A stretch of 64,000 bases of DNA, taken from NCBI GenBank assembly GCA_016212215.1, contig JACRGV010000047.1, positions 2,680-66,679 of the forward strand, given 5' to 3'. Shown one piece after another: positions 22,376-49,353 of this stretch; within the stretch, counting starts at the first letter, position 1, and each line of letters opens with the position of its first letter. The stretch is from Nitrospirota bacterium. Its GTDB lineage: Bacteria > Nitrospirota > 9FT-COMBO-42-15 > HDB-SIOI813. Below the pieces are notes generated by a model. It was not told the DNA's origin. It saw only the letters and a list, made by a program, of their open reading frames with translations, and made no database searches. The translations under genes and the position numbers were made by a program.

Positions 22376-22475
22376 ATTCCTCCTCCCTATTTTGGGCTAA
22401 TTGTTTGAGTAGGTTGAGTAAGTAACACTTCAACCATTAACTATTCACTAACCACTAACCACTAACCACTATTTT
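22376..22475. repeat. Heptamer tandem array (CCACTAA variant)
   Basis: actaaccactaaccactaaccact preceded by related degenerate units. Confidence 0.7.
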
Positions 22476-24646: not shown

Positions 24647-26059
24647 ATGATAAAAACAGAAAGTCTTTCAAAAGAATACTCTTCAGGCACAAAGGCACTG
24701 AGTAATCTCAGTATCAGCGTTGAAGCCGGAGAGATATTCGGGTTCCTTGGACCTAATGGTGCAGGCAAGAGCACAACCATAAAAATACTCACTACATTGT
24801 CACATCCTTCCTCCGGAGCCGCATGGGTAAATGGTTATAATGTTATTACTGAACCGAATAAGGTAAGAGGTTCTATAGGGTATGTAGCACAAGAGGCAGG
24901 GGTTGATTATTTCCTCACCGGTCGTGAGAACCTCGTTCTACAGGGCAGGATGTACAGGATGGAAAAGAAGGCTATCAATTCCAGAGTGGATGAGCTTCTG
25001 GAATTATTCGAATTAAAAGAGAGTGCTGACGCACTGGTTTCAACATTTTCAGGCGGCATGAGAAGGAAGCTCGATATTGCCACTGCATTGATACACAATC
25101 CGAGTATAATCTTTCTTGATGAACCCACATTAGGTTTGGACCCGCACAGCCGTTCCTCATTATGGAATTATATCCGTATCTTAAACAAAGACCTCAAAGT
25201 AACAATCTTTCTTACTACTCATTATCTTGATGAGGCGGATAAACTTTCTAACAGGATCGGTATACTCCACAAAGGAAGTATGAAGATTGTGGATACACCG
25301 GAGGCTTTGAAAGATAGCATCAAAGGAGACTCTGTTAATTTTTCCTTAAAAGGAAAGGTTAAGCAAAAGGCTATTGCATTACTAAAAAACAATTCTGTTG
25401 TTAAAGATATTTTATTAGAGGATGAGAATGTAAGAGTTTATGTAAACAATGGAAGTGAGGCAATACCCGGATTAATCAAATTCCTGGGTCAGAATAATAT
25501 TGACATAGAATCCCTTTCTATTTCAAGGCCTACGCTTGATGACGTCTATCTAAAGTACAGCGGCGCCAGTTTCAAAGAGGGCGACGGTGAAGGAGACTCT
25601 AATCCCTGGTGGGCACAGTGGGCCAAGAAGGGATGGGGTAAAAACTGGAAAGGCGGCGAGTGGAATAAGGAAGGCGGCCATGAAGGTGATCAAGAGGGGC
25701 AGGCTGAAGGTGAGGGCGGAGATTGGCAGAATGGGCAATGGACTGAAGAGGAAATGAAGGCGTGGTGGAGTCAGGGAGGGCAGGGAGCAGGCAGCAGTGA
25801 ACAGGCAGCAGAGGAGAAGCAAGAAGAAAACCAGAAGCAAGAAGAAACGCAGAGGTCAGAAGCAAGAAGTGAGAAGTTAGAAGGGACAGAAGAGAAGCAA
25901 GAAGTCAGAAGCAAGAAGTCAGAAGAAACAGAAGAGTCAGAAGAAACGGAAGAAACACCGGTTGTGTCAGGTGATAATGGGAATAAGGAAGAGCCTTGGA
26001 AGAAATGGTCTGAAGAAGAGATGAAGGCGTGGTGGGGCAAGGGGGGTAGTAAAGGATGA
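24647..26059 (+). CDS. ABC transporter ATP-binding protein (ABC-2/DrrA-like) with an unusual Trp/Glu/Gly-rich C-terminal tail of about 165 aa
   Basis: Walker A GPNGAGKST, signature SGGMRRKL, Walker B IIFLDEPT. After about residue 305 the sequence becomes low-complexity (WWAQWAKKGWGKNW..., duplicated EEEMKAWW(S/G)xGG) and includes translated heptamer repeats. The stop overlaps the permease start (ATGA). Confidence 0.8.
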   Translation: MIKTESLSKEYSSGTKALSNLSISVEAGEIFGFLGPNGAGKSTTIKILTTLSHPSSGAAWVNGYNVITEPNKVRGSIGYVAQEAGVDYFLTGRENLVLQGRMYRMEKKAINSRVDELLELFELKESADALVSTFSGGMRRKLDIATALIHNPSIIFLDEPTLGLDPHSRSSLWNYIRILNKDLKVTIFLTTHYLDEADKLSNRIGILHKGSMKIVDTPEALKDSIKGDSVNFSLKGKVKQKAIALLKNNSVVKDILLEDENVRVYVNNGSEAIPGLIKFLGQNNIDIESLSISRPTLDDVYLKYSGASFKEGDGEGDSNPWWAQWAKKGWGKNWKGGEWNKEGGHEGDQEGQAEGEGGDWQNGQWTEEEMKAWWSQGGQGAGSSEQAAEEKQEENQKQEETQRSEARSEKLEGTEEKQEVRSKKSEETEESEETEETPVVSGDNGNKEEPWKKWSEEEMKAWWGKGGSKG

Positions 26060-31432: not shown

Positions 31433-31464
31433 AAACGGATAGGTAAATCTATCCGTTTTTTTTG
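31433..31464 (+). terminator. Rho-independent terminator downstream of the O-methyltransferase gene
   Basis: aacggatagg-taaat-ctatccgtt hairpin followed by TTTTTTTT. Confidence 0.7.
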
Positions 31465-31484
31465 ACCGGAAAGGAGATTAGATT

Positions 31485-32291
31485 ATGTTCAGAAACAAAT
31501 CCTTCTTTATCAGGCTTCTTTTTTTATTTGCAGTTTCAATACTGCTTTCTTCTACAGCTTATGCTGCAATGACCGGTTTGGATATCATGAAAAAGGTAGA
31601 AGATCTCCCGGCTGGAGATGACCAGAAGTCTACAGTTACCCTTACACTTATCTCTGCACAGGGACAGGAGAAGAAGATTATTACAAAGAGGTACTGGAAA
31701 AATAACAGGGGAAAAGATGGATTTTACAGTAAGACAATATTTTTTACAACCCATCCCCCGGATTCAAAAGGTACAGGCTTTCTGATCTGGGATTATGCAG
31801 AAGAGGGAAAGGTTGACGGCCTCTGGCTTTATCTTCCTGCCCTTAGAAAGGTAAGCGTAATATCTACAAGGAGTCAGGATGATGCCTTTATGGGGTCAGA
31901 CCTTACGTTTGCAGATATGGGGCAAAGGCGTCTTAATGAGGATACCCATGATTTTGTCGGTGAGAAGCCTTGCGATGGGCAGACATGTTATGTTGTTGAA
32001 AGCAGACCTAAGGAACAGGGGTCAGCTTACAGTAAAAGGATTTTCTGGATACTGAAGGATGACTGGAGGACAGTGAAAATAGAGTACTTTGATCAGAAAA
32101 AAGAGCCGCTGAAGGTTCAGAATATAACATGGCAGAAGAGCGGCAATCTATGGGTATGGAAGGCCGCTACTGTAAAAAATACGCAGACAGGTCATTCTAC
32201 TATATTTGAGATAAGTGATCTGAAGGTTAACAATGGATTTAAAGACGACCTGTTTTCAGAGAGGATGCTGAAACGCGGGGAGGGACCATAG
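31485..32291 (+). CDS. LolA-like / outer-membrane lipoprotein-sorting family protein (periplasmic)
   Basis: 268 aa with a signal peptide. Size and layout match the LolA-like proteins that accompany MMPL transporters. SD AAAGGAGA upstream. Confidence 0.45.
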   Translation: MFRNKSFFIRLLFLFAVSILLSSTAYAAMTGLDIMKKVEDLPAGDDQKSTVTLTLISAQGQEKKIITKRYWKNNRGKDGFYSKTIFFTTHPPDSKGTGFLIWDYAEEGKVDGLWLYLPALRKVSVISTRSQDDAFMGSDLTFADMGQRRLNEDTHDFVGEKPCDGQTCYVVESRPKEQGSAYSKRIFWILKDDWRTVKIEYFDQKKEPLKVQNITWQKSGNLWVWKAATVKNTQTGHSTIFEISDLKVNNGFKDDLFSERMLKRGEGP

Positions 32292-32474
32292 AATATTAAC
32301 AGACGATTTCTTATAATTTCATTTATTCTATGCAGCATGAAAATATTGTTATCATCGTCATTCAAAAATCCCTCCGGCGGGGTAAGAAAACCCCGCCTAT
32401 CCGGAGATATATCAAGGATAGGTGGGACATTCTTGTCCCACTCATTTTCACCGCCCTTCGTGAGCGATCTACTC

Positions 32475-34103
32475 ATGAACTTTTTCCTTGCAATAGCTTT
32501 AATAGGTAGTATCCTGTTTTATAACCCAGTGTTCGTGAGGGGAGAGGAGCCGCCTTCATCTGAAAGTATAAAGACTGAGGAGGCACCTCTTCCTGTACAA
32601 GAAGGCACTTCTATACCGGCCGGTACAACAGAGGTCAAGCCTTCTGCAAATGAAGAAATACCACCACAGCCCGGCCCTCAAATAGAAGCCCCTGCATTGC
32701 CGCCTGCTGAAGGTACAGTTCAGGGGATTATGGAAGAAACCGTACCTCCTTCACCTCCCCGTGGTATATTAACATGGCTCAATGAAGAGGTGTTGAAGGA
32801 TATTGAGGTAAGAGGATACCTTAAGAATGAAACTGCCTACAGATATGTGAGTCCATCTGCATTTGCGAAGATTTTAAATATACTTCAGGTTGAACCTTCT
32901 TATTCGTTTAATTCAAGTATCAAGCTAAGTGCGAGGGCATGGGTCTATTACGACCTTGCTTATGATATACAGGATGTGGGGAATATTGCACCAATTAAGG
33001 CATTTACATTCATCCAGCCGCCGGGTGCGGGAGGGGCAGAACCTAAGATAGAAAACCTTAGGACGATTCAGACGGATAAATATGGTATTGACCTCAAGGA
33101 GATTTACTTCGACCTTTTCTTCGGAAGTATGGACTTCAGGGTAGGGAAGCAGATTATCAGGTGGGGCATTGTAGAAGGCTGGCGTATACTTGACGATGTG
33201 AACCCGCTTGATTTTAAGGAACATATATTGCGGGATGTTTCCGACAGATACATACCTTTGTGGATGTTAAAGGCCGATTATTATGTCGGTCCGATTACTA
33301 TTGAAGGCTTATGGATTCCAGATTTAAAGGGGCATGAACCTGCACCGCTCCGTTCCGAATGGTCTCAGTTTCAGAAACTTCCCGGTCTGGTAAGGATCCC
33401 GAGGACTATTAAAAACAGTGAGGGCGGCTTACGAACTTCAGGTATGTTGGGTGGGTATGAATTTGCATTGACATATTTTTATACATGGGATGACTTCCCG
33501 ACTGCCTTCAGGTCAGTTGCAGGGCTTGGTCTCGGTAATATCGGCATTTCTCCGACAGTTGATTTTACCCCAAGATACAGGAGGAATACTGAATACGGGC
33601 TTGGGCTTGCAAAGAGTTTTGGGAAAATAGTCCTTGAAGGCGAAGTAGCTTATGTGGATGGAAAGTATTGGGGAACGTGCACAGGATGCACTCCAACCGG
33701 AGGAACATTCGGCGAGCTTCAAAGGGATTATTGGAAACATGTTATGGGGGTGAAAACAGTTCTTTTTGGGGCGGATATTTCTGTAAATTTTTCACAGGAT
33801 ATAATCCTGAATCATCATAAAGATATACAGCAAAAAAGACATGAAGATGCAGCCTCTCTTTTTGCAAGGAAGGAGATCCGCTATGGAACAATGGTACCTC
33901 AGCTTCTTGCGATTTCCCTTATTAATCGTCATGAGTATTTATTCAGACCTAAACTTGAATGGAGATATTCAGATAAGATAACATTCCTTTTTGGGCTTGA
34001 TATTTTCTCCGGTGACGCAGGGCCTGATCCCGGAAGGTTGAACTTCTTCGGATATTTTGATGATGATGACCGTGCCTATATGGAGGTTAAGTACAGCTTT
34101 TGA
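32475..34103 (+). CDS. Porin-like outer-membrane protein (DUF1302-like). The ORF track start at 32337 lies in a REP element; the likely start is MNFFLAIAL at 32475.
   Basis: Signal peptide, about 540 aa, beta-strand periodicity, C-terminal ...MEVKYSF. Located between the LolA-like and MMPL genes. Confidence 0.5.
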   Translation: MNFFLAIALIGSILFYNPVFVRGEEPPSSESIKTEEAPLPVQEGTSIPAGTTEVKPSANEEIPPQPGPQIEAPALPPAEGTVQGIMEETVPPSPPRGILTWLNEEVLKDIEVRGYLKNETAYRYVSPSAFAKILNILQVEPSYSFNSSIKLSARAWVYYDLAYDIQDVGNIAPIKAFTFIQPPGAGGAEPKIENLRTIQTDKYGIDLKEIYFDLFFGSMDFRVGKQIIRWGIVEGWRILDDVNPLDFKEHILRDVSDRYIPLWMLKADYYVGPITIEGLWIPDLKGHEPAPLRSEWSQFQKLPGLVRIPRTIKNSEGGLRTSGMLGGYEFALTYFYTWDDFPTAFRSVAGLGLGNIGISPTVDFTPRYRRNTEYGLGLAKSFGKIVLEGEVAYVDGKYWGTCTGCTPTGGTFGELQRDYWKHVMGVKTVLFGADISVNFSQDIILNHHKDIQQKRHEDAASLFARKEIRYGTMVPQLLAISLINRHEYLFRPKLEWRYSDKITFLFGLDIFSGDAGPDPGRLNFFGYFDDDDRAYMEVKYSF

Positions 34104-34221
34104 GAAGCAAGAAGTAAGAAGTTAGAAGTAAGAAGTTAGAAGCAAGAAGCAAGAAGTTAGAAGTAAGAAAAAGGGTGCAATCGAATCCTTGCCCCCTTGA
34201 ACCCTTTATTTAGTAAGGAGT

Positions 34222-37200
34222 ATGACAATGTTACAAAAGCATATTCAACGTATTGTACGCTTTCCGGTTACTATTATTTTACTTACTATTTTTGCGACGT
34301 TGTTTTTTGGGTACCAGTTCAAAAGCCTGTTTATGGTACTGGATCCTAAGGCACTGCTTCCGCAGGAACATCCTTATGTGAAACTTAATAATGAGATAGA
34401 GAAACAATTCGGGGGGAGCCGTGTTGTCTTAATAGGTCTGGCATCAAAGGATGGAGATATATTCAATCCTTCAGACATAGAAAAGATAAGGCGTATAAAT
34501 GAAGAAGTAAAAAAGATACCGGGTATTCTGGAAAATAATGTCGTCAGCATTGCAGACAAAAAGGTGAAGTATGTAAAGGCAGAGGGTAATTCACTTGATA
34601 TAAAGGGTGTACTTGAAGGGATTGAATATACAGATGAAGGGATGAAAGAATTAAAGGAGAGGGTATATTCAAACCCTGCATTTATAAACAGCCTAGTTTC
34701 CGCAGACGGGAAAGTTGCTGCAATTATTCTGGATTTTAAAGGTGGTGCGAGTGACTGGCAGCAGAAGGCAGGGGGGGAGCAGAAAACAGAAGTAAGAAGT
34801 CAGAAGCAAGAAGTCAGCAGTAATCAGTCAGAAGTTAGAAGCAAGAAGCAAGAAGTAAGAAATGATGAGGCTGAAGGCGGAAGGCTGAAGGCTGAAGTAA
34901 GAAATGAGAAGCAAGAGACCAGTTCCACCCATGGGGGAGGGTCTCTATCCTTTTTCCCCTCCCCCTTGACGGGGGAGGGTAAGGGTGGGGGTGGTCTCGT
35001 TGCCTCTGCTTATGCGCAGGAAGATTGGAAGAAATGGCAAAAAGGCGGGGGGGCAGAGCAGAAGCAAGAAGCAGGAAAACAAGAGGCTGAAGGCGGAAGG
35101 CTGAAGGCTGAAGCAGGAAGCAAGAAGCAAGAAGGAGGCAACACTGAAACACCTTCCTCCCCTTCGACAGGGGAAGGCACAACACCACAGACTCCCTCCC
35201 CCTCGACGGGAGAGGGCACAACATCACAAATCCCCTCCCCCTCGACGGGGGAGGGTAAGGGTGGGGGTGAGCAAGGGAAGTGGCCTGCTGGTGGCGGTGA
35301 AGGCGGTTGGGGCGGAGCCGGCGGTGGTGAGGCAAATTGGGAGCAGTGGTATGTAAGTGACTCTACTATTCATAAAAAGATACTTGAGATTGTTGATAAA
35401 TATAAAGACGCAAATACTGATATATATGTTGGCGGTTTGCCGATAGCACTTTCTTTCCTTGAGGCAGATTCATTGAGGATGACGAAGTATGTGTATCCGC
35501 TTGCCCTGATAGTGATAATGATAGTTCTATATTTTGCATTCCAGAGTATACAGGGGATGATCCTGCCGATAGTTTGTGCACTTTTAAGCGTGGTATGGGC
35601 TGTAGGGTTAATGGGTGTATTTAAGATAGCTCTTGATCCATGGAATATGATGACCCCTATCTTAATCCTTGCTGTTGCCGCAGGACATTCTGTGCAGATT
35701 TTGAAAAGATACTATGAGGAACTTGGAAATGCCCCCCTCACCCATCCCTCTCCCCATTGGGGAGAGGGTAAGGGTGAGGGGGAGCGTGGGGGTGAGGATG
35801 ATCGCCACTGGGGCGTTATCGCCTCCCGTAAGGCTGTTGTGGATTCTCTATCTAAGATAGGGCCTGTTATGATAACAGCAGGTCTTGTAGCAGCGGCGAG
35901 CTTTGCGTCACTTGTTACATTTAAGTTAAAGACATTCCAGTCTTTTGGTATATTCACAGCCTTCGGAATCCTGAGTGCACTGATTCTTGAGATGACATTT
36001 ATTCCGGCGGCGAGGTCGTTGATGAAGCCACCTAAAAGACAGTTAGCAGTTAGCAGTAAGCAGTTAGCAGGAACTCCCTCCCCCTTGACGGGGGAGGGTC
36101 GGGGTGGGGGTGGGCTACTCGACCGCTTTATGCTCTCCATTTCACGTCTTGTTACTCATCGAAGCGGGTTTGTATGGGTTGGTCTTTTGGTTGTTATTGC
36201 CTTTTCTGTTTACGGGATTGAACACTTAACTATCATAAATAGCCTGAAAGGGCTTTTCTTTGAATCAACACAATTCAGGAAGGATGATGCGGCATTAAAT
36301 AAGAGCTTCGGGGGAACTGCGACTTTTTATGTTTATTTAGAAGGTGACAAGGAAGACAGTCTGAAAAATCCTGAAGTGCTGCGTGCTATAGAGAGCCTTC
36401 AGAAAGAGATAGAGAGCGTACCTGAGGTCGGTAAGACCCAGTCGTTTGTTGACTATGTTAAATCAATGAATCAGAGTATGCATGGCGGAGACCCTGCATA
36501 TCGTGTTATTCCTGCTGACCAGCAGACAATTTCAGAATATCTCTTTCTGTTTACTATCTCAGGGTCACAGGGAGAGATGGACAGGTTTCTTGATTACCAG
36601 TATCAGAAGAGTGTTATCTGGGTATTTTTAAGGGATGACAGCACGGTGTTAGGGCAGAGGTTGATTGATATAGTTAATAAATATGGGGGGGGAGTAGAAG
36701 CAAGAAGTAAGAAGCAAGAAGTAAGAAAGGATGAGGCTGAAGGTGGAAGGCTGAAGGCTGAAGTCAGAAATGAAAAAGCAGAAGTAAGAAGTAAGACGCA
36801 AGAAACAACGGTTCCCTCCCCCCTTGCGGGGGAGGGTCAGGGTGGGGGGGATCGCTTCCCTCCCGGCATCAAGGTTGGTGTTGCCGGCAGTATCCCTGTT
36901 ATGATGGCGCTCAATCAGACGATGGTGGCAGGTAAGATATGGAATATCCTGCAGATAGCAGGGATTGTGTTTGTTATATCCGCCATTGTTCTCAGGTCTG
37001 TGATTGGGGGTATCCTTGTGCTTCTGCCGCTTGGTGTAGCGGTACTTGTGAACTTTGGGGTACTTGGAATAGCAGGAATAGGGCTTGGTGTGGGTACTGC
37101 GGCCATCTCTGCAATGGCAGTCGGTTTCGGGGCTGATTATTCGATTTATATGGTGTACCGGCTTAGGGAAGAAGCAAGAAGCAAGAAGCAAGAAGAAAAA

Positions 37201-37479
37201 GAAGAGAAGTCAGAAGTAAGAAGTCAGAAGCAAGAAGCAAGAAGTAAGAAAGAAGATATTGATGAGGCAATTAAAAGGACACTCTTAACTGCAGGTAAAG
37301 CTATTGTTTTTGTAGCCGCAGCAATGAGCGTCGGCGGTATTACGCTTCTGTTCACTGGATATTATTTGCACATGGAAGGTTTTTTAGTTCCACTTGCCAT
37401 GTTTACAAGCTCTTTGTCAACATTGATTGTATTACCTGCGGTGGTGGCTTTGGTGAGGCCGAGGTTTATCTATAGGTAA
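34222..37479 (+). CDS. MMPL/RND-superfamily transporter (HpnN-like) carrying five in-frame insertions of repeat elements
   Basis: Two sets of six TM helices plus periplasmic loops (GGLPIALSFLEAD..., AGHSVQILKRYYEE, GFGADYSIYMVYRL). The hydrophobic cores are interrupted by low-complexity segments encoded by heptamer and REP repeats. Confidence 0.75.
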   Translation: MTMLQKHIQRIVRFPVTIILLTIFATLFFGYQFKSLFMVLDPKALLPQEHPYVKLNNEIEKQFGGSRVVLIGLASKDGDIFNPSDIEKIRRINEEVKKIPGILENNVVSIADKKVKYVKAEGNSLDIKGVLEGIEYTDEGMKELKERVYSNPAFINSLVSADGKVAAIILDFKGGASDWQQKAGGEQKTEVRSQKQEVSSNQSEVRSKKQEVRNDEAEGGRLKAEVRNEKQETSSTHGGGSLSFFPSPLTGEGKGGGGLVASAYAQEDWKKWQKGGGAEQKQEAGKQEAEGGRLKAEAGSKKQEGGNTETPSSPSTGEGTTPQTPSPSTGEGTTSQIPSPSTGEGKGGGEQGKWPAGGGEGGWGGAGGGEANWEQWYVSDSTIHKKILEIVDKYKDANTDIYVGGLPIALSFLEADSLRMTKYVYPLALIVIMIVLYFAFQSIQGMILPIVCALLSVVWAVGLMGVFKIALDPWNMMTPILILAVAAGHSVQILKRYYEELGNAPLTHPSPHWGEGKGEGERGGEDDRHWGVIASRKAVVDSLSKIGPVMITAGLVAAASFASLVTFKLKTFQSFGIFTAFGILSALILEMTFIPAARSLMKPPKRQLAVSSKQLAGTPSPLTGEGRGGGGLLDRFMLSISRLVTHRSGFVWVGLLVVIAFSVYGIEHLTIINSLKGLFFESTQFRKDDAALNKSFGGTATFYVYLEGDKEDSLKNPEVLRAIESLQKEIESVPEVGKTQSFVDYVKSMNQSMHGGDPAYRVIPADQQTISEYLFLFTISGSQGEMDRFLDYQYQKSVIWVFLRDDSTVLGQRLIDIVNKYGGGVEARSKKQEVRKDEAEGGRLKAEVRNEKAEVRSKTQETTVPSPLAGEGQGGGDRFPPGIKVGVAGSIPVMMALNQTMVAGKIWNILQIAGIVFVISAIVLRSVIGGILVLLPLGVAVLVNFGVLGIAGIGLGVGTAAISAMAVGFGADYSIYMVYRLREEARSKKQEEKEEKSEVRSQKQEARSKKEDIDEAIKRTLLTAGKAIVFVAAAMSVGGITLLFTGYYLHMEGFLVPLAMFTSSLSTLIVLPAVVALVRPRFIYR

Positions 37480-37616
37480 GCCATGGAGAGAAGTAAGAAG
37501 TAAGAAGCAAGAGGCAAGAAGTAAGAAGTAAGAAGTAAGAAGATAGAAGTAAGAAGATAGAAGTAAGAAGTAAGAAGTTAGACATAAGACATAAGACATA
37601 AGACTTTAGAGGCAAG
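37480..37616. repeat. Long heptamer tandem array (AAGTAAG, AAGATAG, ACATAAG variants)
   Basis: agaagtaagaagtaagaagcaagaggcaagaagtaagaagtaagaagtaagaagatagaagtaagaagatagaagtaagaagtaagaagttagacataagacataagacataagac. Confidence 0.9.
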
Positions 37617-37982
37617 ATGGCGATACGGAGTTATAGGGATTTAAATGTATACTCACTTTCATATAGCCTCGCTATGGAGGTATTTCATATAACATTACGT
37701 TTTCCAAAAGAGGAAATGTATTCCTTGAGCAGCCAGATTAGGAACTCCTCAAGGTCGATACCTGCAAATATTGCTGAAGGGTGGGCAAAGCGAATATACG
37801 AGAATATTTTCAAACGGCACCTTGTTGATGCAATAGGCTCAACATGCGAAACTATAGTATGGTTAGATTTTGCATTAGACTGTAAGTATATTGACAACAA
37901 TAATCATTTGAAATTATCTGAAAATTATAAAGAAGTTGGAAAAATGTTAAATGGCCTACTTGAAAACTGGCAAACCTATTAA
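37617..37982 (+). CDS. Four-helix-bundle protein (23S rRNA intervening-sequence protein family)
   Basis: 121 aa. YRDLNVYSLSYSLAMEVFHIT...PANIAEGW matches the family signature (dL.VyQ.a..l...i......P.NIAEG). Confidence 0.7.
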   Translation: MAIRSYRDLNVYSLSYSLAMEVFHITLRFPKEEMYSLSSQIRNSSRSIPANIAEGWAKRIYENIFKRHLVDAIGSTCETIVWLDFALDCKYIDNNNHLKLSENYKEVGKMLNGLLENWQTY

Positions 37983-39033
37983 GTCGAAATCCTTTCTTGC
38001 TTCTATCTTCTTGCGTCTTGTTTCCCGTTTCTTACTTCTTACTTCTTACTTCTTACTTCTTACTTCTATTTTAGCTCCCCGCCCTGCCTACGCTGCCCTT
38101 CAGCCCAGCCTTTCTATTGTAACAGGTTATTATATGCCGAGGCTTGATGAGTTGAACTATATTTTAAAATATAGAGAGGTTGAGCTTGGCCCCCGTAATA
38201 CAGAAGCAAAACCCTCACCATATCCTGTCATATATCAGGGCTATAGCCCTGAAGGTATGCCTAAGATGAGTCCTAAGTCCCCAAAGTTCGGACTCCAATT
38301 TCAGGTTGATATTAATCCCAGGTATTCTGTGTTTATTGGAAATAGTGTTGCTACTTATGATTCCGAGAAAAGAGACGTGAGGTCATTCTTTGTGGGTTTT
38401 TCAATACCTTCTGACCGTGTAACAAGGTTTTCCCTTTCATTGAATCAACTATGGATAGGGGTTAAGAGGAACTGGATATTTGAGGAAAAGGGGAAGCCAG
38501 AAGAAAGAAGCAAGAGGCAAGAAGCAAGAAGTAAGAAGGAAGAAGACGGAAGCAAGAAGCAAGAAGCAAGAAGTCAGAAACAAGAAGAAAGTCAGAAGCA
38601 AGAAGATAGAAGTAAGAAGGCAGAAGAGAAGCCTGCCTCAAAGCTTTATGTGGAGATGGGGGTGCTTGCTGTAACAAGGGCATATCTTACTACAGACGTG
38701 TGGTTGCATGTTTACGCCCCTGAGGAGGGTTTTGATTTCTATAAGGTTACGGAAACTCTGTCACAGGGATACGGATATGCAACCTTCATAGGTATAGGCG
38801 GGGAATACTTCATAAAGAAATGGATGTCATTAGGCTTGGATGCGGATTATACTATAGGCGGTGTCTCAAAGATAAAATATGCCAGGTACTTTACAGTAGA
38901 CCCTCTGGAGAAAGATATTATTAAACCAGGGGATAAGGTTACATATACAGATCTAAAGGTTGGCCGCGTTGCCCCATTGTTTATAAACTTAGAGGGAGTG
39001 GATATAAAGGGGCAGGTAAGGTTTTATTTTTAG
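37951..39033 (+). CDS. Outer-membrane beta-barrel protein with an in-frame repeat insertion. The likely start is the TTG near 37996, giving signal peptide (M)RLVSRFLLLTSYFLLLTSILAPRPAYA.
   Basis: Ends ..GQVRFYF (C-terminal aromatic). The central KPEERSKRQEARSKKEEDGSKKQEARSQKQEESQKQEDRSKK is encoded by heptamer repeats. The signal peptide is encoded by the reverse complement of the same repeat. Confidence 0.5.
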   Translation: MAYLKTGKPIKSKSFLASIFLRLVSRFLLLTSYFLLLTSILAPRPAYAALQPSLSIVTGYYMPRLDELNYILKYREVELGPRNTEAKPSPYPVIYQGYSPEGMPKMSPKSPKFGLQFQVDINPRYSVFIGNSVATYDSEKRDVRSFFVGFSIPSDRVTRFSLSLNQLWIGVKRNWIFEEKGKPEERSKRQEARSKKEEDGSKKQEARSQKQEESQKQEDRSKKAEEKPASKLYVEMGVLAVTRAYLTTDVWLHVYAPEEGFDFYKVTETLSQGYGYATFIGIGGEYFIKKWMSLGLDADYTIGGVSKIKYARYFTVDPLEKDIIKPGDKVTYTDLKVGRVAPLFINLEGVDIKGQVRFYF

Positions 39034-40921: not shown

Positions 40922-43900
40922 TTGACTGGAAAGGTTATTTCCGATATATTCAACGTCTTTATGATATTCTTAAAAATTAGAAATAGCTTTATTCGTGTTC
41001 TGATTCTTGCCTTTTTTTCTCTTACTTCTTACTTCTTGCTTCTTACTTCTTGCTTCTTATCTCTGTCCGGCAATAACTACGCCTATGCAGAGGAGGCACA
41101 GCCCACTGTCTCTTCTCCGCTTGAAAGGGGCATCCGGCTTCTGAATGAAAAGAAACCTGATGAGGCATTAAAGGCCTTTGAAGAGGCTTCATCCGTAAAT
41201 CCGACGGACCCCTTACCCTTTTACTATTCAGGTGTTGCGTATCATATTAAACGGCAGTTCGCCCCGGCCCTTAATGCATTAAACAAGGCATTAAATCTTC
41301 AGCCTAACATGCCGCCTGCCCTGCTCAGGATAGGTATGCTGTTTGAAGACGTGGGGAGGATTAACAATGCAAGGGAAGTTTATACCGACCTTATTGAAAC
41401 AGGTGTAGAAAATGAGTATGTTAAAGAGGCAAGGGAAAGGCTGAACAGGATTACATCAAAGGAACATTTCAAGAAGGCATCCCAGCTTTTTATCGGAAAA
41501 CAATATGAAGAGGCGCTTAAGGAACTGGATATAGTCTTATCCCTTACGCCTGAAGATGCTGAGGCACTTTTTTCTTCCGGAATGGTCTCTGTATTTTTAA
41601 AAAAACCTAAAGAGGCTGTGTATTTCTTTAAGAAGGCTTTAGAAAATAATCCAAACCATGTTAATGCACGTTTACAACTTGCGATTGTGTATGAGTCTCA
41701 GGGTGACTATGAAAATGCAATAAAGACTTTTAAAGAGCTTATTTCGTTCTCACCTAATTCTACTCAGGCAAAGGAGGCTGAGAAAAGGCTCGCAGAAGAT
41801 GAAAAACGATTTAAGGCCCGCGGCCATTTTGAGGCGACGGCAGAATTGATACGCAAAGAACTCTGGACAGAGGCCCTCGCTGAGGCAAAGAAGGTGTTGG
41901 AGGCAGAGCCTGATAATCCGGATGCACATTTCAATCTTGGTTTAATCCATTATAAACTTAAACAGAATGACCAGGCTATCGAGGCATTAAAACATGCGAT
42001 TGATGCTGACCCAAAACTTCAAAAGGCATACTACCAGCTTGGGGTTGTATATGATGATATGGCGAAATATAAGGAAGCGGTTGAGGAGTATGAAAAGACT
42101 ATTGCTATAGATGAAAAGGCAGAAGAGGCTACTAAGGCAAGGGAGCGTATTGAACTCATTAATTCTGTGAATGTAGAGGAGGAGGTAGCCAACGAGGTTA
42201 AGGAGCTTCTTAAAAACAAAGATGTTGACAGTGCCATAAAAGAGATAGAAGGTTTTTTAATGAGGAAGAAGGGGGATACAAAACTCCTGATGACCCTCGC
42301 TGCTTTATATCAGCGTGCAAATCGTTATCAGGATGTTGCCTCTACCCTGGAAAAACTGTTGAGTTTATCTCCAAAGGATATAAAGGCTCGTTTCTTCCTT
42401 GCAAATACTTATGAATTGATGAGGGAGTATGAAAAGGCATTAGATCAATACCGCATATTGGCAGATCAGGATAAAGAGACACCAAAGGGAAAAAAGGCAG
42501 AGGAGAAGGTGCAGAGATTAACATTACAGGTACATTATGACCGTGGTAAAAAGTATCTTCTATCAGGGAATTATGAGGCATCCCTGATAGAAATGAAGGC
42601 AGTCCTTGATGTTTCTCCTGATGAGCCGCTTGCACTTTTCAATATGGGTGTTCTTTATGACCGTCTAAATAGTCCTGACGAGGCAGTGTCATCTCTAAAA
42701 AAGGCAGTTACCATTGTTCCTGATTATACAATAGCCTACTTTCAACTTGGATTAGTTTATGAAAAGATGAGGAAGTTTGATGAGGCAAGAGATGCATTAC
42801 GTAAAGTCATAGAGATTGACAAAGAGGGTAAAGAGGCAAAGATAGCACAGGATAGGATCAATTCTCTGAAGGAAAACGAGGAATTAACCTTACGCCTAAA
42901 GGAAGCAATAGGTTTTATGGAAAAAAGGGAATGGGATAATGCGAGGAAGTCTATTGAGTCTCTATTAGTCACTCATCCATCCAACTATATGGGATATTAT
43001 TATCTCGGTATTATTCTGAATAGGTCAGGGATTATAGATGAGGCTAAGGCGGCTTTTAAGAAGGTTATCGCTATTAATCCAAAATTTGCGGCGATATATC
43101 TTCAACTTGGGGATATGTTGATGCAGGAGGGCGAATATGAAGAGGCAAGAAACAACTATGAGCAGGCGATCCTAATTAATAAAGATTCTCCGGAGGCGGC
43201 AACAGCCGGGGAACGACTTAAAAATCTGAAGGCATGGTGGGGTAGTTTTTCTATGAGTCACAGCTACAATTCAAACATAGCCTTCCGCTCTAAGGCACAG
43301 TCAAGTGCAAACTCCAATTATAACCTTGGGTTGAGCTATACAATGCTTCGCCGAAAAAATTGGAATATATCTACTGTACTATCCGGTAGTGAAGCCATTT
43401 ATTATGAAAGCCAATTTAAGGGGAATTCATACTCCGCTGCCTTAAACGGAACCCGTAATTTTCTGGATAAATATACCTTATCAGGCTCCGGAACATATAG
43501 CGCATCCTTTTTTGAAGGGAAACCGACTGTTGTCTCGACTCATTTCTCTGGAAATGCAGGGACAAATCCGGGAGGAATACCATCGTCAGCTACCCTTGCA
43601 TATTCTTTTTCCAACACAAGGTCTTTTGTAAATAAATTAAGTAATGCAAACCAACATAATCTGAATCTGTCACTCTCACAAAAAATGTCTGCACGGGATT
43701 CATTAACCGGTAGTTATGGATTCAGCATATATCAAAATCTTGATCCCATAGGCAGTAATTATGCAAACAGGACGCATGCTGTTTCTTTAAGTTACGGCCA
43801 CCACTTTTTTTCTTTTTTAAACCTGAGCCTCAGCTACTCAAGAAGCTTTATAAACTACAGTAACCCGGATTCAACAACACTTTTTCAGAGATACCGCAGT

Positions 43901-44131
43901 AATGTAAGTGAGGGAATGAATGGGGGGCTTAGCGTCTCTTTTTCAGAAGATGTTTCATTGTCTTTCAGCTATACTTTTTCCTATGCAATAAATCGTACAA
44001 ACCTTGCGCCGTTAACGGCGGAAGAACAGCAACAACTGAAGGACCTCCTGTCTACCCCACTTCCAACAGTCGGCGGCGGGGGAGGATATACTGCACACAA
44101 TGCAGGTTTATCATTAAGCGTTCGCTTTTAG
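40922..44131 (+). CDS. Outer-membrane protein with a periplasmic TPR-repeat domain and a C-terminal beta-barrel (PgaA/BcsC-like architecture)
   Basis: At least 14 TPR units across residues 60-780. The C-terminal roughly 290 aa is Ser/Tyr/Asn-rich with alternating strands and ends ..LSLSVRF. The signal peptide FFSLTSYFLLLTSCFLSLSGNNYAYA is encoded by reverse-complement heptamer repeats. Confidence 0.65.
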   Translation: MTGKVISDIFNVFMIFLKIRNSFIRVLILAFFSLTSYFLLLTSCFLSLSGNNYAYAEEAQPTVSSPLERGIRLLNEKKPDEALKAFEEASSVNPTDPLPFYYSGVAYHIKRQFAPALNALNKALNLQPNMPPALLRIGMLFEDVGRINNAREVYTDLIETGVENEYVKEARERLNRITSKEHFKKASQLFIGKQYEEALKELDIVLSLTPEDAEALFSSGMVSVFLKKPKEAVYFFKKALENNPNHVNARLQLAIVYESQGDYENAIKTFKELISFSPNSTQAKEAEKRLAEDEKRFKARGHFEATAELIRKELWTEALAEAKKVLEAEPDNPDAHFNLGLIHYKLKQNDQAIEALKHAIDADPKLQKAYYQLGVVYDDMAKYKEAVEEYEKTIAIDEKAEEATKARERIELINSVNVEEEVANEVKELLKNKDVDSAIKEIEGFLMRKKGDTKLLMTLAALYQRANRYQDVASTLEKLLSLSPKDIKARFFLANTYELMREYEKALDQYRILADQDKETPKGKKAEEKVQRLTLQVHYDRGKKYLLSGNYEASLIEMKAVLDVSPDEPLALFNMGVLYDRLNSPDEAVSSLKKAVTIVPDYTIAYFQLGLVYEKMRKFDEARDALRKVIEIDKEGKEAKIAQDRINSLKENEELTLRLKEAIGFMEKREWDNARKSIESLLVTHPSNYMGYYYLGIILNRSGIIDEAKAAFKKVIAINPKFAAIYLQLGDMLMQEGEYEEARNNYEQAILINKDSPEAATAGERLKNLKAWWGSFSMSHSYNSNIAFRSKAQSSANSNYNLGLSYTMLRRKNWNISTVLSGSEAIYYESQFKGNSYSAALNGTRNFLDKYTLSGSGTYSASFFEGKPTVVSTHFSGNAGTNPGGIPSSATLAYSFSNTRSFVNKLSNANQHNLNLSLSQKMSARDSLTGSYGFSIYQNLDPIGSNYANRTHAVSLSYGHHFFSFLNLSLSYSRSFINYSNPDSTTLFQRYRSNVSEGMNGGLSVSFSEDVSLSFSYTFSYAINRTNLAPLTAEEQQQLKDLLSTPLPTVGGGGGYTAHNAGLSLSVRF

Positions 44132-44855: not shown

Positions 44856-47117
44856 TTGCAAGAATGCAATAACAAAGTGAGTAGAAATAAATTACCTAAT
44901 ACCTTATCACATCCATATATAGCCTTTATCCTTTTTGCATCAATTGGTACCTTGATATATTTGAATTCCCTTAATAATCCATTTCAATTTGATGATTTTA
45001 ATGTAGTAGTTAATAATTTCAAGATACAAGAAATAAAGAATATACCCTACTTTTTTATTAATCCAAGATTCGGAGCCAACAATCCAATGGCCGCCGGACA
45101 CTACAGGCCTATTTTATTTACAAGTTATGCAATCAATTATGCTATAGGCGGGTTGAATACCCTTGGCTATCATATAGTTAATCTGGCTTTTCACATTGGG
45201 ACAGCGTTTTTAGTTTTCCTCATAGTGAAGGGAATGTTGGAAGACAGTAAGCAGGTAGCAGTAAGCAGTGAGCAGATAGCAGAAAACAAACAGAAGTTAG
45301 AAGCAAGAAGTCAGACGACAGCAGACATCCAGCGGGACAAGAATGTCCCGCCTATAGATAGTCGGGGTTTTCTAACGCCTACGTTTGTAGATAGTCGGGG
45401 TTTTCTAACCCCGATGTTTGTTGCCTCAGTGGCTTCTGGTCTTATTTTCCTTGTCCATCCATTTAATTCAGAGGCTGTAAATTATATAACAGCCCGTTCG
45501 AGTATAATGAGCGGGTTCTTCTATTTGTTGGGGTTTTATTGCTGGGTGCTTTTTAGAAGTCAGAAGAAAGAAGCAAGAAGCAAGAAGTTAGAAGCAAGAA
45601 GTAAGATTTCAGAAGAAAGAAGTCAGAAACAAGAAGTTAGAAGTCAACAGGCAGAAGAAAGAAGTAAGAAGGCAGAAGTAAGAAGTAAGATAGGGGAAGA
45701 CCGGCAAGGTTTTTCTAACTTCTTACCTCTTACCTCTTACTTCTATCTTTTTTCCCTCCTCGCCTTTATCGCCGGTATGTTAAGTAAAGAAGTGGTGATA
45801 ACTTTGCCGGTAATGTTGTGGTTGTATGATTTGTATGGGTTTAGCAGAAGCAAGAAGTTAGAAGCAAGAAGTAAGAATCAAGAAGATAACACAGTAATAA
45901 ATAAGTATGCAGTATTTGATTTGCGTACCTATATCCCCTATCTCCCTTTTGTTCTTCTTGTAGCGATACCGTATCTGCTAGTACGTCTCTTTTCACTCGG
46001 CAGGGTGCTTGATAAGTTTCAGAGGGGTTTTATTACACAACTGTTCACAGAGTTGCCTGTTCTTGTGAGACATTGGCAGATGTTTTTTATCCCAAAGGGC
46101 TTTAGCCTGGTTCACGATGTGGATGTATTCCATGGCATGACATGGTTGTTTATGGTTTCAGTTGTAATATTGATATTATATCTGTGTGGTATTGTGTATC
46201 TATTTTTGTATGGAAAAGGCCGTTGGCGTATTATATCTTTTTTTATGCTGTGGTTTTTTATTGTACTGCTTCCAACAACAATTATTCCACTTAATGCAAT
46301 CTTTCAGGAAAACCGGGGTTACATGGCCTTGTTAAGTTTTGCAGTACCGGCAGGGATTGCAATTGAGACTTTGTTTAATTATAAAAAAAGTGTAGTATTG
46401 AAGGTTATCGTGCTGTTATTATTATTGGCGGTTTATGGAAGTATTACGATGCAGAGAAACATTGTATGGGGGGATGATATTAAGTTATGGAAGGACGCAT
46501 TAGAGAAGTCTCCGCAATCCGGGATTTCCTTTGCAGGATTATCTCTTGCCTATAAGAACAGTGGTGATACATTTCTCTCAATTGAAACTGCGAAAAAGGG
46601 AATTTCTGTAGAACCTGATAGCTATTATCTCCATATGCTTATAGGAGCAGATTTTCAGGCACTTGGTCAAATGGATGAGGCCGCTAAAGAATATGAAAAT
46701 GCGCTTAATATAGATGCAGGTTTCGGTAATGTATGGAATGACCTTGCAGTTTTGTATATAGAAAAAAACAACCTTGAACGTGCGGAGCAGTGCTTAAAAA
46801 ATGGGATAAAGGTTTGGAAGGATTTGCCTCCTCTTTACTATAATCTGGGCAGGATAGATATAATGCGCGGAGATTTTGTTAATGCTATTAGCCACTATGA
46901 AACAGCAGTAAAATTGTATCCGGATTACCTTACTGTGAGGTATGACATGGGAGAGGCTTATGAAAAACTTAATAAGATAGATCAGGCAAAGGAACAGTAC
47001 AGAGAGATTATTAAATATAAAACAATTAATCTTAAAAATTTGAATTACAGGTATGGGTTAGATGAAAAAATAGCAGGGGAAATTATAGCAAAGGCGGAGC
47101 AGAAGTTTAATCAGTAA
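44856..47117 (+). CDS. GT-C-fold glycosyltransferase (PMT_2/DUF1736, TMTC-like) with C-terminal TPR repeats; paralog 1 of 4
   Basis: About 11 TM helices. First-loop NPFQFDDFNVV acidic motif and HYRPIL motif. C-terminal TPR units. In-frame heptamer and REP insertions. Confidence 0.7.
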   Translation: MQECNNKVSRNKLPNTLSHPYIAFILFASIGTLIYLNSLNNPFQFDDFNVVVNNFKIQEIKNIPYFFINPRFGANNPMAAGHYRPILFTSYAINYAIGGLNTLGYHIVNLAFHIGTAFLVFLIVKGMLEDSKQVAVSSEQIAENKQKLEARSQTTADIQRDKNVPPIDSRGFLTPTFVDSRGFLTPMFVASVASGLIFLVHPFNSEAVNYITARSSIMSGFFYLLGFYCWVLFRSQKKEARSKKLEARSKISEERSQKQEVRSQQAEERSKKAEVRSKIGEDRQGFSNFLPLTSYFYLFSLLAFIAGMLSKEVVITLPVMLWLYDLYGFSRSKKLEARSKNQEDNTVINKYAVFDLRTYIPYLPFVLLVAIPYLLVRLFSLGRVLDKFQRGFITQLFTELPVLVRHWQMFFIPKGFSLVHDVDVFHGMTWLFMVSVVILILYLCGIVYLFLYGKGRWRIISFFMLWFFIVLLPTTIIPLNAIFQENRGYMALLSFAVPAGIAIETLFNYKKSVVLKVIVLLLLLAVYGSITMQRNIVWGDDIKLWKDALEKSPQSGISFAGLSLAYKNSGDTFLSIETAKKGISVEPDSYYLHMLIGADFQALGQMDEAAKEYENALNIDAGFGNVWNDLAVLYIEKNNLERAEQCLKNGIKVWKDLPPLYYNLGRIDIMRGDFVNAISHYETAVKLYPDYLTVRYDMGEAYEKLNKIDQAKEQYREIIKYKTINLKNLNYRYGLDEKIAGEIIAKAEQKFNQ

Positions 47118-47127
47118 GTTTTAATGT

Positions 47128-49353
47128 ATGAAAGAAGATATGTTCGGGTTCAGAAAAGGGTGTCACCGGTATCTCATAGTCTTTTGTATCTTTTTATTTG
47201 CAGGTCTGCTCATCTATTGGAATTGCTTAAGTAATCCTTTCCAGTATGATGATGACGGCGTGGTTGTTAAGAATACTAATATTAAAGATGTTAAAAATAT
47301 CCCGCTTTTTTTTATAAACCCAAGACTGTCTGAAAGTAATCCTCTGTATGCAGGACATTACAGACCTATTGTTTATGCAAGTTATGCGGTTAATTATGCT
47401 ATCGGGGGATTAAACCCATTCGGGTATCATGTTGTTAATCTGGCGATTCATATTGGTTCTGCGTTTTTGATATTTCTTATAATGAAGGCAATGTTAGAAG
47501 ACAGGAAGCAGTCAGCAGTAAGCAGTGAGCAGATAGCAGAAAACAAACAGAAGTTAGAAGCAAGAAGTCAGACGACAGCAGACATCCAGCGGGACAAGAA
47601 TGTCCCGCCTATAGATAGTCGGGGTTTTCTAACGCCTACGTTTGTAGATAGCCGGGGTTTTCTAACCCCGATGTTTGTTGCCTCAGTGGCTTCTGGTCTT
47701 ATCTTCCTTGTCCATCCATTTAATTCTGAGGCTGTAAATTATATAACAGCCCGTTCGAGTATAATGAGCGGGTTCTTCTATTTGCTGGGGTTTTATTGCT
47801 GGGTGCTTTTTAGAAGTCAGAAGCAAGAAGTAAGAAGTAAGATAGGAGAAGACCATCGTGGTTCTTCTAATTATTTAAATCTAACTTCTAACTTCTTACC
47901 TCTTGCATCTTACCCCTTACCTCTTACCTCTTACTTCTATCTTTTTTCCCTCCTCGCCTTTATCGCCGGTATGTTAAGTAAAGAAGTGGTGATAACTTTG
48001 CCGGTAATGTTGTGGCTGTATGATTTGTATGGGTTTAAGTCAGTAAGCAGTAAACAGTTAGCAGTAAGCAGTAAACAGACAGAAGGAAGTAACACACAAT
48101 GCCCCTCCGAATCTGCTCACCGCTCACTGCTTACTGCTGACTATCTTTTAAACTGGCGTAACTATGTTCTATATCTCCCTTTTGTTCTTCTTGTAGCAAT
48201 ACCGTATCTGCTTATGCGTCTCTTTTCCCTTGGGAAGGTGCTGGACAAGTTTCAAAGGGACATAGTAACTCAAATACTTACTGAGGTACCGGTTTTATTT
48301 AAACACTGGCAGATGTTTTTTATCCCAAAGGGTTTTAGTCTGGTACATGATGTGGACATTTTTCATGGTATGACGTTGTTGTTGATGGTTTCAATCGTAT
48401 TATTTATTTTGTACTTGGTAATTACTCTATATCTTTTTTTGTCCGGTAGTAGATACCTGCGGGTTGTATCTTTCAGTATGATGTGGTTCTTAATTGTACT
48501 CCTTCCAACAACGATTATGCCTTTAAATGCGATCTTTCAGGAAAACCGGGGATACCTTGCAGTTGTATCATTCTCTTTATTAATCGGGGTTGTACTAATG
48601 GAACTCGGTAAGAGGGTCAACAGGACAACAGTTATAAGCATTACTGTTATTTTGTTTATTATCTACGGAGTAATTACAGTCAAAAGGAATTTTGTATGGG
48701 GAGACAGTATCAGGCTTTGGAAGGATGCGGTAGAGATTGCGCCAGGTTCCGGAATAGCATACGCCGGTTTATCTGCAGTATATAGAGAGAGGGGAGACAT
48801 GTTTCTTTCAATTGAAACAGCAAAAAGGGGGCTTAATGCGGAACCGGACAATTACTATTTACACCTTAATCTCGGGCGTGACTACTTTCTTTCAGGAGAT
48901 GTTGACAAGTCCATACAGGAATATGAAAATGCTTTAAGAATTGATCCTAATGATGCGGTTTCAATGAATGAGCTTGCAACACTTTACGTTAAAAAAGGAG
49001 ATATTGAACAAACTGAGATATTCTTGAAGAAGGCAGTCCGGAAATGGTATAGTCTGCCCCCTCTTCACTACAATTTGGGCGTGGTGCTTGTAGGACGTGG
49101 AAAATTATCAGAGGCCGTGACGGAGTTTCAGGAGGCTATTGCCATTTATCCGGCATATCTTCGTGCAAGGTATGAATTAGGTGAAGTCTATGAAAAAACC
49201 GGCAGGTTAGACATGGCAAGAGAACAGTACAATGAAATTATCAGGTATGGCTCACCTGATACCGCTACTGTAGAACTGTTGTATGACCAGGATAAAAGAA
49301 TCGTGGATCGGATTGTAAGTATGGCCAGGCAAAAACTCGGGAATAAACAATGA
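47128..49353 (+). CDS. GT-C-fold glycosyltransferase (TMTC-like) with C-terminal TPR repeats; paralog 2
   Basis: Same architecture as paralog 1 (NPFQYDDDGVVV, HYRPIV). A block of about 330 nt is near-identical to paralog 1. Confidence 0.7.
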   Translation: MKEDMFGFRKGCHRYLIVFCIFLFAGLLIYWNCLSNPFQYDDDGVVVKNTNIKDVKNIPLFFINPRLSESNPLYAGHYRPIVYASYAVNYAIGGLNPFGYHVVNLAIHIGSAFLIFLIMKAMLEDRKQSAVSSEQIAENKQKLEARSQTTADIQRDKNVPPIDSRGFLTPTFVDSRGFLTPMFVASVASGLIFLVHPFNSEAVNYITARSSIMSGFFYLLGFYCWVLFRSQKQEVRSKIGEDHRGSSNYLNLTSNFLPLASYPLPLTSYFYLFSLLAFIAGMLSKEVVITLPVMLWLYDLYGFKSVSSKQLAVSSKQTEGSNTQCPSESAHRSLLTADYLLNWRNYVLYLPFVLLVAIPYLLMRLFSLGKVLDKFQRDIVTQILTEVPVLFKHWQMFFIPKGFSLVHDVDIFHGMTLLLMVSIVLFILYLVITLYLFLSGSRYLRVVSFSMMWFLIVLLPTTIMPLNAIFQENRGYLAVVSFSLLIGVVLMELGKRVNRTTVISITVILFIIYGVITVKRNFVWGDSIRLWKDAVEIAPGSGIAYAGLSAVYRERGDMFLSIETAKRGLNAEPDNYYLHLNLGRDYFLSGDVDKSIQEYENALRIDPNDAVSMNELATLYVKKGDIEQTEIFLKKAVRKWYSLPPLHYNLGVVLVGRGKLSEAVTEFQEAIAIYPAYLRARYELGEVYEKTGRLDMAREQYNEIIRYGSPDTATVELLYDQDKRIVDRIVSMARQKLGNKQ

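Follow-up and report, generated by a model that had tools for sequence, protein, structure and literature searches.

A quarter of an MMPL-type transporter gene in a Nitrospirota bacterium derives from dispersed repeats that are probably translated as tolerated surface loops

The open reading frame (ORF) at 34222..37479 on the plus strand of a 64,000-nucleotide (nt) stretch of the genome of an uncultured groundwater Nitrospirota (assembly GCA_016212215.1, contig JACRGV010000047.1, positions 2,680 to 66,679 of the forward strand; the whole stretch is referred to below as the window) encodes a transporter of the MMPL family in which repeat-derived blocks total ~817 nt, that is, 25% of the ORF. 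Our preferred reading, to which we assign a probability of roughly 0.8, is that this is the gene of a functional MMPL/HAE3-type RND inner-membrane transporter, and that five surface loops of the protein have been colonised by dispersed repeats of the lineage, which are translated and tolerated. Strong purifying selection acts on the transporter core, and the inserts are almost certainly translated, judging from the way in which stop codons are avoided inside them.

The ORF runs uninterrupted over 1085 amino acids (aa), with neither a stop codon nor a frameshift, in agreement with the first-pass annotation, which had described an MMPL protein with two blocks of six transmembrane (TM) helices whose reading frame is preserved through all inserts. 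The database annotation begins at M3, giving 1083 aa, and the protein is 100% identical to MBI5192670.1, an 'MMPL family transporter [Nitrospirae bacterium]' from a groundwater metagenome-assembled genome (MAG). Pfam MMPL (PF03176) is matched in four stretches (119.6 bits against a cut-off of 20.5, E = 1.8e-34), and the best NCBIfam match, HAE3 (TIGR00921), is below threshold (174.1 against 351.9 bits) and split into five stretches by the inserts. The HpnN models TIGR03480 and NF052374 are missed (68.5 vs 751.85 and 39.4 vs 1100 bits, respectively), and since these equivalog cut-offs are far from being reached, HpnN is not a suitable name for the gene. Sequence searches of the PDB gave weak MmpL and HpnN matches only, the identity to solved MmpL proteins being ~11-15%. 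An AlphaFold2 model built on the homolog alignment has 12 TM helices in two six-TM halves and two periplasmic domains, its helices and strands placing these large domains between TM1-2 and TM7-8. The core is modelled confidently, with a predicted local distance difference test (pLDDT) score of 80-93, and has an MmpL-like fold, for which the best Foldseek matches are MmpL4/5/3 (TM-score ~0.75, target-normalised, E ~1e-20). The ratio of non-synonymous to synonymous substitution rates (dN/dS) in the core is 0.038 relative to the closest ortholog, L001, at a dS of ~1.2; this shows strong purifying selection, a weaker statement than the 'essential-looking' of the first-pass annotation. Members of the wider transporter family are only ~770 aa long.

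When the protein was aligned with 23 homologs and the variable sites were delimited by anchoring on conserved residues, every length difference among the 14 orthologs, which share 69-83% aligned identity, was found to sit at one of five sites, the core without these sites being 738-744 aa long in all 14 (738-741 aa in 13 of them). Distant homologs, of ~50% identity, are without inserts at sites 2-5. Site 1 (aa 176-372, nt 34747..35337, on the plus strand like all the sites) belongs to periplasmic domain 1 and spans 66-197 aa among the orthologs, as against 40-144 aa in distant homologs; it is in part a native variable linker that is present in the distant homologs too, and the native motif AYAQEDWKKWQ lies between two repeat-derived blocks (~34782-34995 and ~35056-35270). 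Site 2 (aa 502-534, nt 35725..35823) is a cytoplasmic loop past TM4 (YYEEL), with a length of 19-47 aa in orthologs and mostly 5-6 aa in distant homologs (16 aa in P0020), and site 3 (aa 605-632, nt 36034..36117) is the cytoplasmic TM6-TM7 linker, of 15-55 aa in orthologs and 9-14 aa in distant homologs. Site 4 (aa 822-878, nt 36685..36855) closes periplasmic domain 2 ahead of TM8; it ranges from 2 to 60 aa among orthologs (only 2 aa in two of them) and is reduced to 3-4 aa in distant homologs. Site 5 (aa 985-1013, nt 37174..37260), a cytoplasmic loop past TM10 (YRLREE), comprises 8-33 aa in orthologs (8 aa in two) and 7-14 aa in distant homologs, with one outlier of 33 aa.

The placement of sites 1 and 4 in the periplasm and of sites 2, 3 and 5 in the cytoplasm follows the standard RND topology; site 2 in one half of the protein corresponds in position to site 5 in the other, and site 1 likewise to site 4. 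TM helices and folded subdomains are free of inserts. The residues with pLDDT <50 (aa 176-180, 184-375, 508-526, 608-629, 825-866 and 871-875) correspond to sites 1-4, low pLDDT being a proxy for disorder and not a measurement of it, and for site 5 the model shows a helical extension, with a pLDDT of ~65. The five repeat segments reported in the first-pass annotation are thus confirmed by residue anchoring, and the homolog alignment places the insertion points in loops, outside the TM helices and the folded core. What had been described as a single insert at site 1 is indeed built from repeats, but in two blocks around AYAQEDWKKWQ and within a linker that is partly native. The possibility that the segments are ancestral conserved linkers did not hold up, because inserts at sites 2-5 are absent from distant homologs and close orthologs carry different repeat-derived material at these positions.

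Tandem Repeats Finder (TRF) detected at least nine 7-nt arrays in the ORF, belonging to the families AGAAGYA, AGGCTGA and CAGTTAG; they are imperfect (77-91% matches), perfect runs reaching ~3.7 units at most (37169-37195). A repeat search identified five copies in the gene of a 37-39-nt GC-rich hairpin with a G-run tail, CCCTCCCCCTTGACGGGGGAGGGTAAGGGTGGGGGTG, whose stem consists of 9-10 GC base pairs; identity among these copies is 85-97%, and they match the intergenic ones. An 81-nt composite of heptamers and GATGAGGCTGAAGGYGGAAGGCTGAAGGCTGAAG occurs in three copies and, within the window, only in the MMPL gene. For both the hairpin and the composite patterns 0.00 matches are expected in shuffled sequence, so that those found are far above chance. 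Site 1 contains an AGAAGYA array (site 1a, 34788..34861), composite copy 1 (34830..34910; AGAAGYA units and GATGAGGCTGAAGGCGGAAGGCTGAAGGCTGAAG), which is 91% identical to the copy of site 4 (36696-36776) and 74% identical to 35046-35126, and hairpin copy 1 (34957..34993), encoding PSPLTGEGKGGGG. These are followed by composite copy 2 with AGAAGCA units (site 1b, 35046..35134), two tandem 39-nt degenerate hairpin units (35153..35230; PSSPSTGEGTTPQT and PSPSTGEGTTSQI; TRF period 39, repeat family D5) and hairpin copy 2 (35233..35269), at a position that is also occupied in the closest ortholog. Site 2 harbors a hairpin variant (35744-35782), and site 3 a CAGTTAG array (36040-36070) and then a hairpin (36076-36112). 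Composite copy 3 (36696-36776), AGAAGTA units (36780-36804) and a hairpin (36814-36850) make up the content of site 4, and that of site 5 is an AGAAGCA/AGAAGTC/AGAAGTA array (37169-37250). Array starts overlap native purine-rich codons, for example those of REE (AGGGAAGAAG) at site 5, which suggests that arrays were seeded by microhomology.

Folding energies of the hairpins range from -20 to -31 kcal/mol, and the corresponding z-scores are not significant relative to dinucleotide shuffles. These scores are, however, uninformative, since any shuffle of a C-run and a G-run pairs well, and the hairpin is therefore argued from its visible 9-10-bp stem. At none of the genic copies was a terminator-like site detected on the sense strand, so the hairpins do not act as terminators there, and neither terminal inverted repeats nor target duplications were seen for the element. 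The copies are complete hairpins with a G-run tail, in place of the 'REP halves' previously proposed. The statement that the segments are of the same type as the intergenic repeats stands for the arrays and the hairpin, which are found in spacers, but not for the composite.

The case for translation comes from the stop codons that these repeats can generate. Tandem AGAAGTA yields TAA in every frame within 21 nt. In spacer arrays this T variant accounts for 25 of 40 units (62%), whereas in the phase that would give TAA it is found at none of eight positions in the MMPL gene and at none of 20 over all genes of the window; in the other phases the counts are 9/15 and 22/50, respectively (Fisher P from 6e-3 to 8e-7 for this phase-specific avoidance). 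The hairpin possesses a single stop-free sense frame, encoding PSPLTGEG-X-GGG, and this frame is the one used by all five genic copies. Codon X is TAG in 7 of 9 spacer copies, as against AAG (three times), CAG and CGG in the gene (P = 0.01); orthologs have K, Q, R or W at this position, AAG, CAG and TGG being one step away from TAG and CGG (R) two. Tryptic peptides predicted from the inserts include LKAEVR, QEVRNDEAEGGR and peptides covering PSPLTGEGK.

The orthologs show that the five sites vary in content as well as in length, the same sites carrying different repeat peptides. In P0003 these are EVRSQKS and QEARGKRQE heptads and PSPLMGEG; P0005 (L002) has another dispersed element, AGFSLRNQGGHGRNLKVAAT, at three MMPL sites; P0009 has PSPVKGEGANVPSPLAGEGQGGG; and P0012 and P0014 have SLSLRERDRVRV, which corresponds to a hairpin read in another frame. 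The DNA alignment with L001 (~80% nt identity) reveals clean presence or absence of modules, with CAGTAAG/CAGTTAG heptamers in L001 at sites where the window has AGAAGYA units, and with two modules in common, namely the last site-1 hairpin and the CAGTTAG array of site 3. In L005, an 8-kb locus of a different groundwater MAG, each of the five sites contains a heptamer array, and nine such arrays are present in all. Period-7 arrays are limited to part of the ortholog clade, only one having been found in the 1.3 Mb of 152 loci outside the clade. A test for a genome-specific heptamer 'dialect' shared by genic and intergenic arrays gave an unclear result, reflecting mainly the depletion of stop-prone units in the gene (P = 0.02), and hairpin copies harvested by pattern from ortholog loci yielded too few clean copies for the TAG test. 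Sites 1-3 and 5 contain additional sequence in every one of the 14 orthologs. Since the sites are occupied across orthologs, they are best regarded as long-standing permissive hot spots with turnover of content, and not necessarily as the products of five recent insertions.

In our reading, these features result from two steps. Repeats would be seeded and turned over by slippage, by recombination between copies or by transposition, and the resulting inserts then pass a strict selective filter, which the gene itself shows. This filter retains inserts at the five indel-tolerant positions only, with lengths divisible by three; hairpins are kept in their single stop-free frame; and arrays are kept in the purine-rich orientation, encoding K/E/R/S/Q/G. 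It also favors variants in which stops are cured, with AGAAGTA changed to AGAAGCA in the dangerous phase and the TAG of the hairpin tail changed to AAG, CAG or CGG. The products would be hydrophilic, low-complexity and mostly disordered loops. Because the length and content of the loops vary freely between orthologs, they are most likely tolerated passengers and not required parts of the transporter.

Several points weigh against this reading. The translation of the inserts is deduced from sequence constraints only, and the tests of stop avoidance in part presuppose an open ORF, although homology flanks every insert and shows that the reading frame is real. The contig belongs to a short-read MAG, in which repeats are prone to misassembly. 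The retention of extra material at most sites in 14 of 14 orthologs could mean that some loop length is useful. With a dS of ~1.2 to the closest ortholog, the rate and order of the insertions are beyond resolution, and a turnover called 'rapid' would be without a time scale. Finally, the antisense orientation of the hairpin is open in all three frames, and selection for an open frame alone is therefore insufficient to explain why hairpins are found in the sense orientation.

Other explanations of the inserts can be weighed on the same data. The first-pass annotation had left it open whether the encoded loops are tolerated or the elements are removed at the RNA or protein level. Removal before the mature protein, by an intron-like, intein-like or programmed bypass process, is scarcely credible: beyond the oddity of the inserts and the stability of the hairpins nothing speaks for it, no intron or ribozyme was reported by Rfam in the gene at E<=1, and Pfam gave no intein/Hint domain in the MMPL protein. 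The Rfam matches were all sub-threshold (under the gathering score of the family concerned), on or around the site-2 hairpin, and mostly to eukaryotic microRNA families, the others being to an archaeal small nucleolar RNA and a long non-coding RNA family. Moreover, host-frame stops are specifically avoided inside the inserts, which would be pointless if these were spliced from the RNA, and the same avoidance patterns support the tolerated and translated loops. It is hardly any more probable that the gene is decaying or non-functional, or that the repeat blocks are artefacts of short-read assembly. This would fit a repeat-rich MAG contig and an ORF of which 25% is low-complexity, but it is difficult to reconcile with 1085 open codons, homology on both sides of every insert, a core dN/dS of 0.04 and the finding of inserts at the same five positions in independent assemblies of different geographic origin (New Zealand and NC groundwater, JGI metagenomes).

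The length of the unit raises another possibility, which we consider very unlikely, namely that the gene is a contingency locus in which the transporter is turned off and on by frame shifts whenever one 7-nt unit is gained or lost. Heptanucleotide repeats drive phase variation in Haemophilus influenzae, and this precedent, together with arrays that lie within the ORF and have a unit that is not a multiple of three, is what recommends the idea. The genic arrays are, however, imperfect (77-91%), with at most ~3.7 perfect units against 5.6 in intergenic arrays; mixed units, as stop avoidance requires, suppress slippage; and no frameshifted allele was seen among the orthologs. Less unlikely, though still improbable in our view, is that the loops are adaptive, being, for example, charged spacers (single helices or helical hairpins) or disordered tethers kept by positive selection, which could contact partners such as the LolA-like or DUF1302 proteins or span the periplasm. 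In favor of this are the extra material at four of the five sites in every ortholog, the E/K/R/Q-rich heptads of site 5, which are modelled as a helical extension of TM10/TM11, and the composite, whose translation has a GG turn between two charged stretches and which is 91% identical at two sites. The structural relatives MmpL4/5 carry a coiled-coil domain, one being named in the Foldseek list in MmpS4-MmpL4 complexes, and the common hairpin is ~92% identical between the window and L001 where the flanking gene is ~80% identical. Yet orthologs do not share a conserved insert content, two of them have just 2 aa left at site 4 and two others just 8 aa at site 5, pLDDT is <50 at sites 1-4, and the same repeats occupy unrelated genes and spacers. 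We therefore retain the interpretation of the loops as tolerated, repeat-derived segments.

A bolder possibility, which we put forward tentatively and think doubtful, is that arrays and hairpin/G-run elements form an orientation-locked repeat system that returns time and again to the same tolerant positions and regularly ends up as protein, sense copies giving charged, disordered or helical loops and antisense copies giving hydrophobic signal-peptide cores and TM helix starts. Hairpins are sense to the local genes in five of five genic and nine of ten spacer copies, and most purine-rich heptamer arrays lie on the sense strand. The loops encoded by sense arrays are charged, and antisense TTCTTAC arrays encode LLLTSYF-type hydrophobic signal-peptide cores or the starts of TM helices. 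The cumulative GC skew of the window has its minimum at ~22000-23000, a possible replication origin, from which genes diverge (minus to the left, plus to the right); as gene direction and GC skew switch together in the window, causes linked to transcription and to replication are inseparable. The only hairpin in the window that opposes local gene direction, at 49677 (-), is one of three copies in the spacer 49353-49887, the others being at ~49545 (+) and 49714 (+). If the orientation-locked system were real, it would be a chromosomal, non-triplet analogue of the repeat-driven protein innovation of Borgs, and might rely on a mechanism dedicated to insertion or synthesis and have an adaptive value for membrane and exported proteins.

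The repeats are by no means confined to the MMPL gene. TRF detected 7-nt arrays throughout the window, mostly in spacers and at ~0.6 per kb, the intergenic ones reaching 5.6 perfect units. An intergenic AGAAGYA array (34103..34169, +), rich in the stop-giving AGAAGTA/AGAAGTT, lies directly 5' of the MMPL gene, and heptamer arrays (AGAAGTA x13 and AGACATA; 37489..37604, +) lie directly 3' of it. Outside the gene ~10 hairpin copies are found, in spacers of the window, so that the MMPL gene, 5% of the window, holds five of ~15 copies (binomial P = 7e-4). The antisense ORFs 34835..35335 and 36649..37191, which the first-pass annotation regarded as by-products of the repeats, are indeed explained in this way, as is 35712..36140, because the reverse complements of both repeat classes are stop-free in all frames. 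In-frame repeats are present in at least seven other genes of the window, and the MMPL gene is thus not unique. Four tandem paralogs at 44856-54196 (multi-TM and TPR) have repeat modules at three to four shared sites, with differing presence and absence. In these paralogs, heptamer loops of 5-40 aa are seen, as well as a 33-nt hairpin unit, TAGATAGCCGGGGTTTTCTAACCCCGACGTTTG, which occurs once or twice and encodes DSRGFLTPTFV, and inverted AGAAGYA/TRCTTCT arrays, of which the antisense half begins a TM helix.

Two ORFs downstream of the MMPL gene, 37951-39033 (array at 38029-38067) and 40922-44131 (array at 41020-41059), are predicted to encode exported proteins, and look like carriers of repeat-derived signal peptides: their signal-peptide cores, FLLLTSYFLLLTSIL and SLTSYFLLLTSCFL, are encoded by antisense TTCTTAC arrays and are each followed by an AYA cleavage-like motif. 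Within 37489-38067, a '23S rRNA intervening sequence protein' four-helix-bundle gene (37617-37982) is flanked by inverted arrays in a cassette-like arrangement, with AGAAGTA x13 upstream and TTCTTAC x5.6 downstream. A diversity-generating retroelement was considered on account of this four-helix-bundle gene and was rejected, as the Avd match is at 30.7 vs 80 bits and no template/variable repeat pair was seen. An ABC-transporter ATPase (24647-26059) has a C-terminal tail of ~160 aa in which W-rich motifs (EEPWKKWSEEEMKAWW) are interspersed with K/E/Q/S sequence derived from heptamers; the W-rich motif is similar to DWKKWQ, which is native to site 1 in the MMPL protein and its homologs. Three heptamer families, AGTGACG, GAGTGGT and CCTTCAG, lie at 11422-11515 between a pair of type II secretion pseudopilin-like genes, the last-named family being the reverse complement of the AGGCTGA family of the MMPL gene, and an intergenic array related to the AGGCTGA composite is located at 11482-11507. 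The arrays at 11422-11515 give the downstream gene a spurious N-terminal ORF extension (11061-11528).

The MMPL gene is the third of three co-oriented genes, following a LolA_like/DUF1329 gene (31485-32291, +) and a DUF1302 gene (32337-34103, +). Since the three are co-oriented and a terminator-like site (31433-31458) and a promoter-like site (31462-31489) are found just 5' of the LolA_like gene, they probably form one operon.

The gene offers an unusually clear natural case of non-coding repeats turned into protein, affecting a quarter of a conserved 12-TM transporter, and the selection involved can be read from the sequence, in the stops cured in the dangerous phase and in the one TAG codon of the hairpin. 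The five sites also point out the loops of an MMPL-type transporter in which large insertions are tolerated, which is useful for tagging and engineering. If the pattern is genome-wide, the lineage would lend itself well to work on the de novo origin of signal peptides and disordered regions in bacteria.

Dispersed repeats inserted in frame have been described in other organisms. Rickettsia palindromic elements (RPE; Ogata et al. 2000, reviewed in PMC3184786) are dispersed, lie in frame in functional Rickettsia genes and measure ~105-146 bp (Table 1 of that review), and in-frame insertions are also known for BRE and for pneumococcal and cyanobacterial MITEs (PMC3184786). The likeness to RPE drawn in the first-pass annotation holds for the mode of working, since here too repeats are dispersed between genes and are found in frame in a functional gene, where they would be translated as surface segments; it does not extend to family membership. 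Sequence and size are unlike those of RPE, Rfam gave no RPE family in the gene, the host is a free-living Nitrospirota, and the elements are 7-nt arrays and a 37-nt hairpin that occupy five sites in one gene (25% of the ORF), sites which are common to orthologs with differing content. Like the MITE and BRE insertions, some of the repeat families are fused into coding sequences. The hairpin recalls repetitive extragenic palindromes and the mosaic elements that they form (REP/BIME) in being a short GC-rich imperfect palindrome in spacers downstream of genes, co-oriented with transcription; it differs from them in having five copies in one ORF and a single fixed frame.

In Borgs, ORF repeats have unit lengths always divisible by three, are near-perfect and create disordered regions (PMC9879509). 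The repeats described here appear to share with them the disordered K/E- or P/T/S-rich regions, the enrichment in membrane and extracellular proteins, and the fast, lineage-specific evolution that are features of Borg repeats, but their 7-nt unit is read in all frames in turn, with a 7-aa period per 21 nt, the arrays are imperfect so as to avoid stops and belong to the same families as intergenic arrays, and they reside on a bacterial chromosome. The cyanobacterial short tandemly repeated repetitive (STRR) sequences and the G-rich heptamers of Xanthomonas and Nostoc are reportedly intergenic by preference and under-represented in coding regions (PMC4692102); abundant lineage-specific 7-nt arrays, strand orientation relative to genes and variability between relatives are common to these systems and ours, whereas unit sequences and phylum are different and many of the present arrays are inside ORFs. 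A literature search on heptanucleotide repeats in Nitrospirae returned no paper, work on STRR, Magnetobacterium and small dispersed repeats providing general comparators only. As to the host protein, the MMPL Pfam domain, the 12 TM helices, the two periplasmic domains and the MmpL4/5/3-like fold are shared with the MmpL, HpnN and HAE3 proteins, although sequence identity to the solved MmpLs is low and the scores stay below the HpnN and HAE3 cut-offs. Overall, the system is similar in mechanism to the RPE, Borg and heptamer systems and is a member of none. The general phenomenon is known; what sets this case apart is the reading of a 7-nt unit in all frames, its combination with a hairpin, the five shared hot spots in a single transporter and the visible curing of stop codons.

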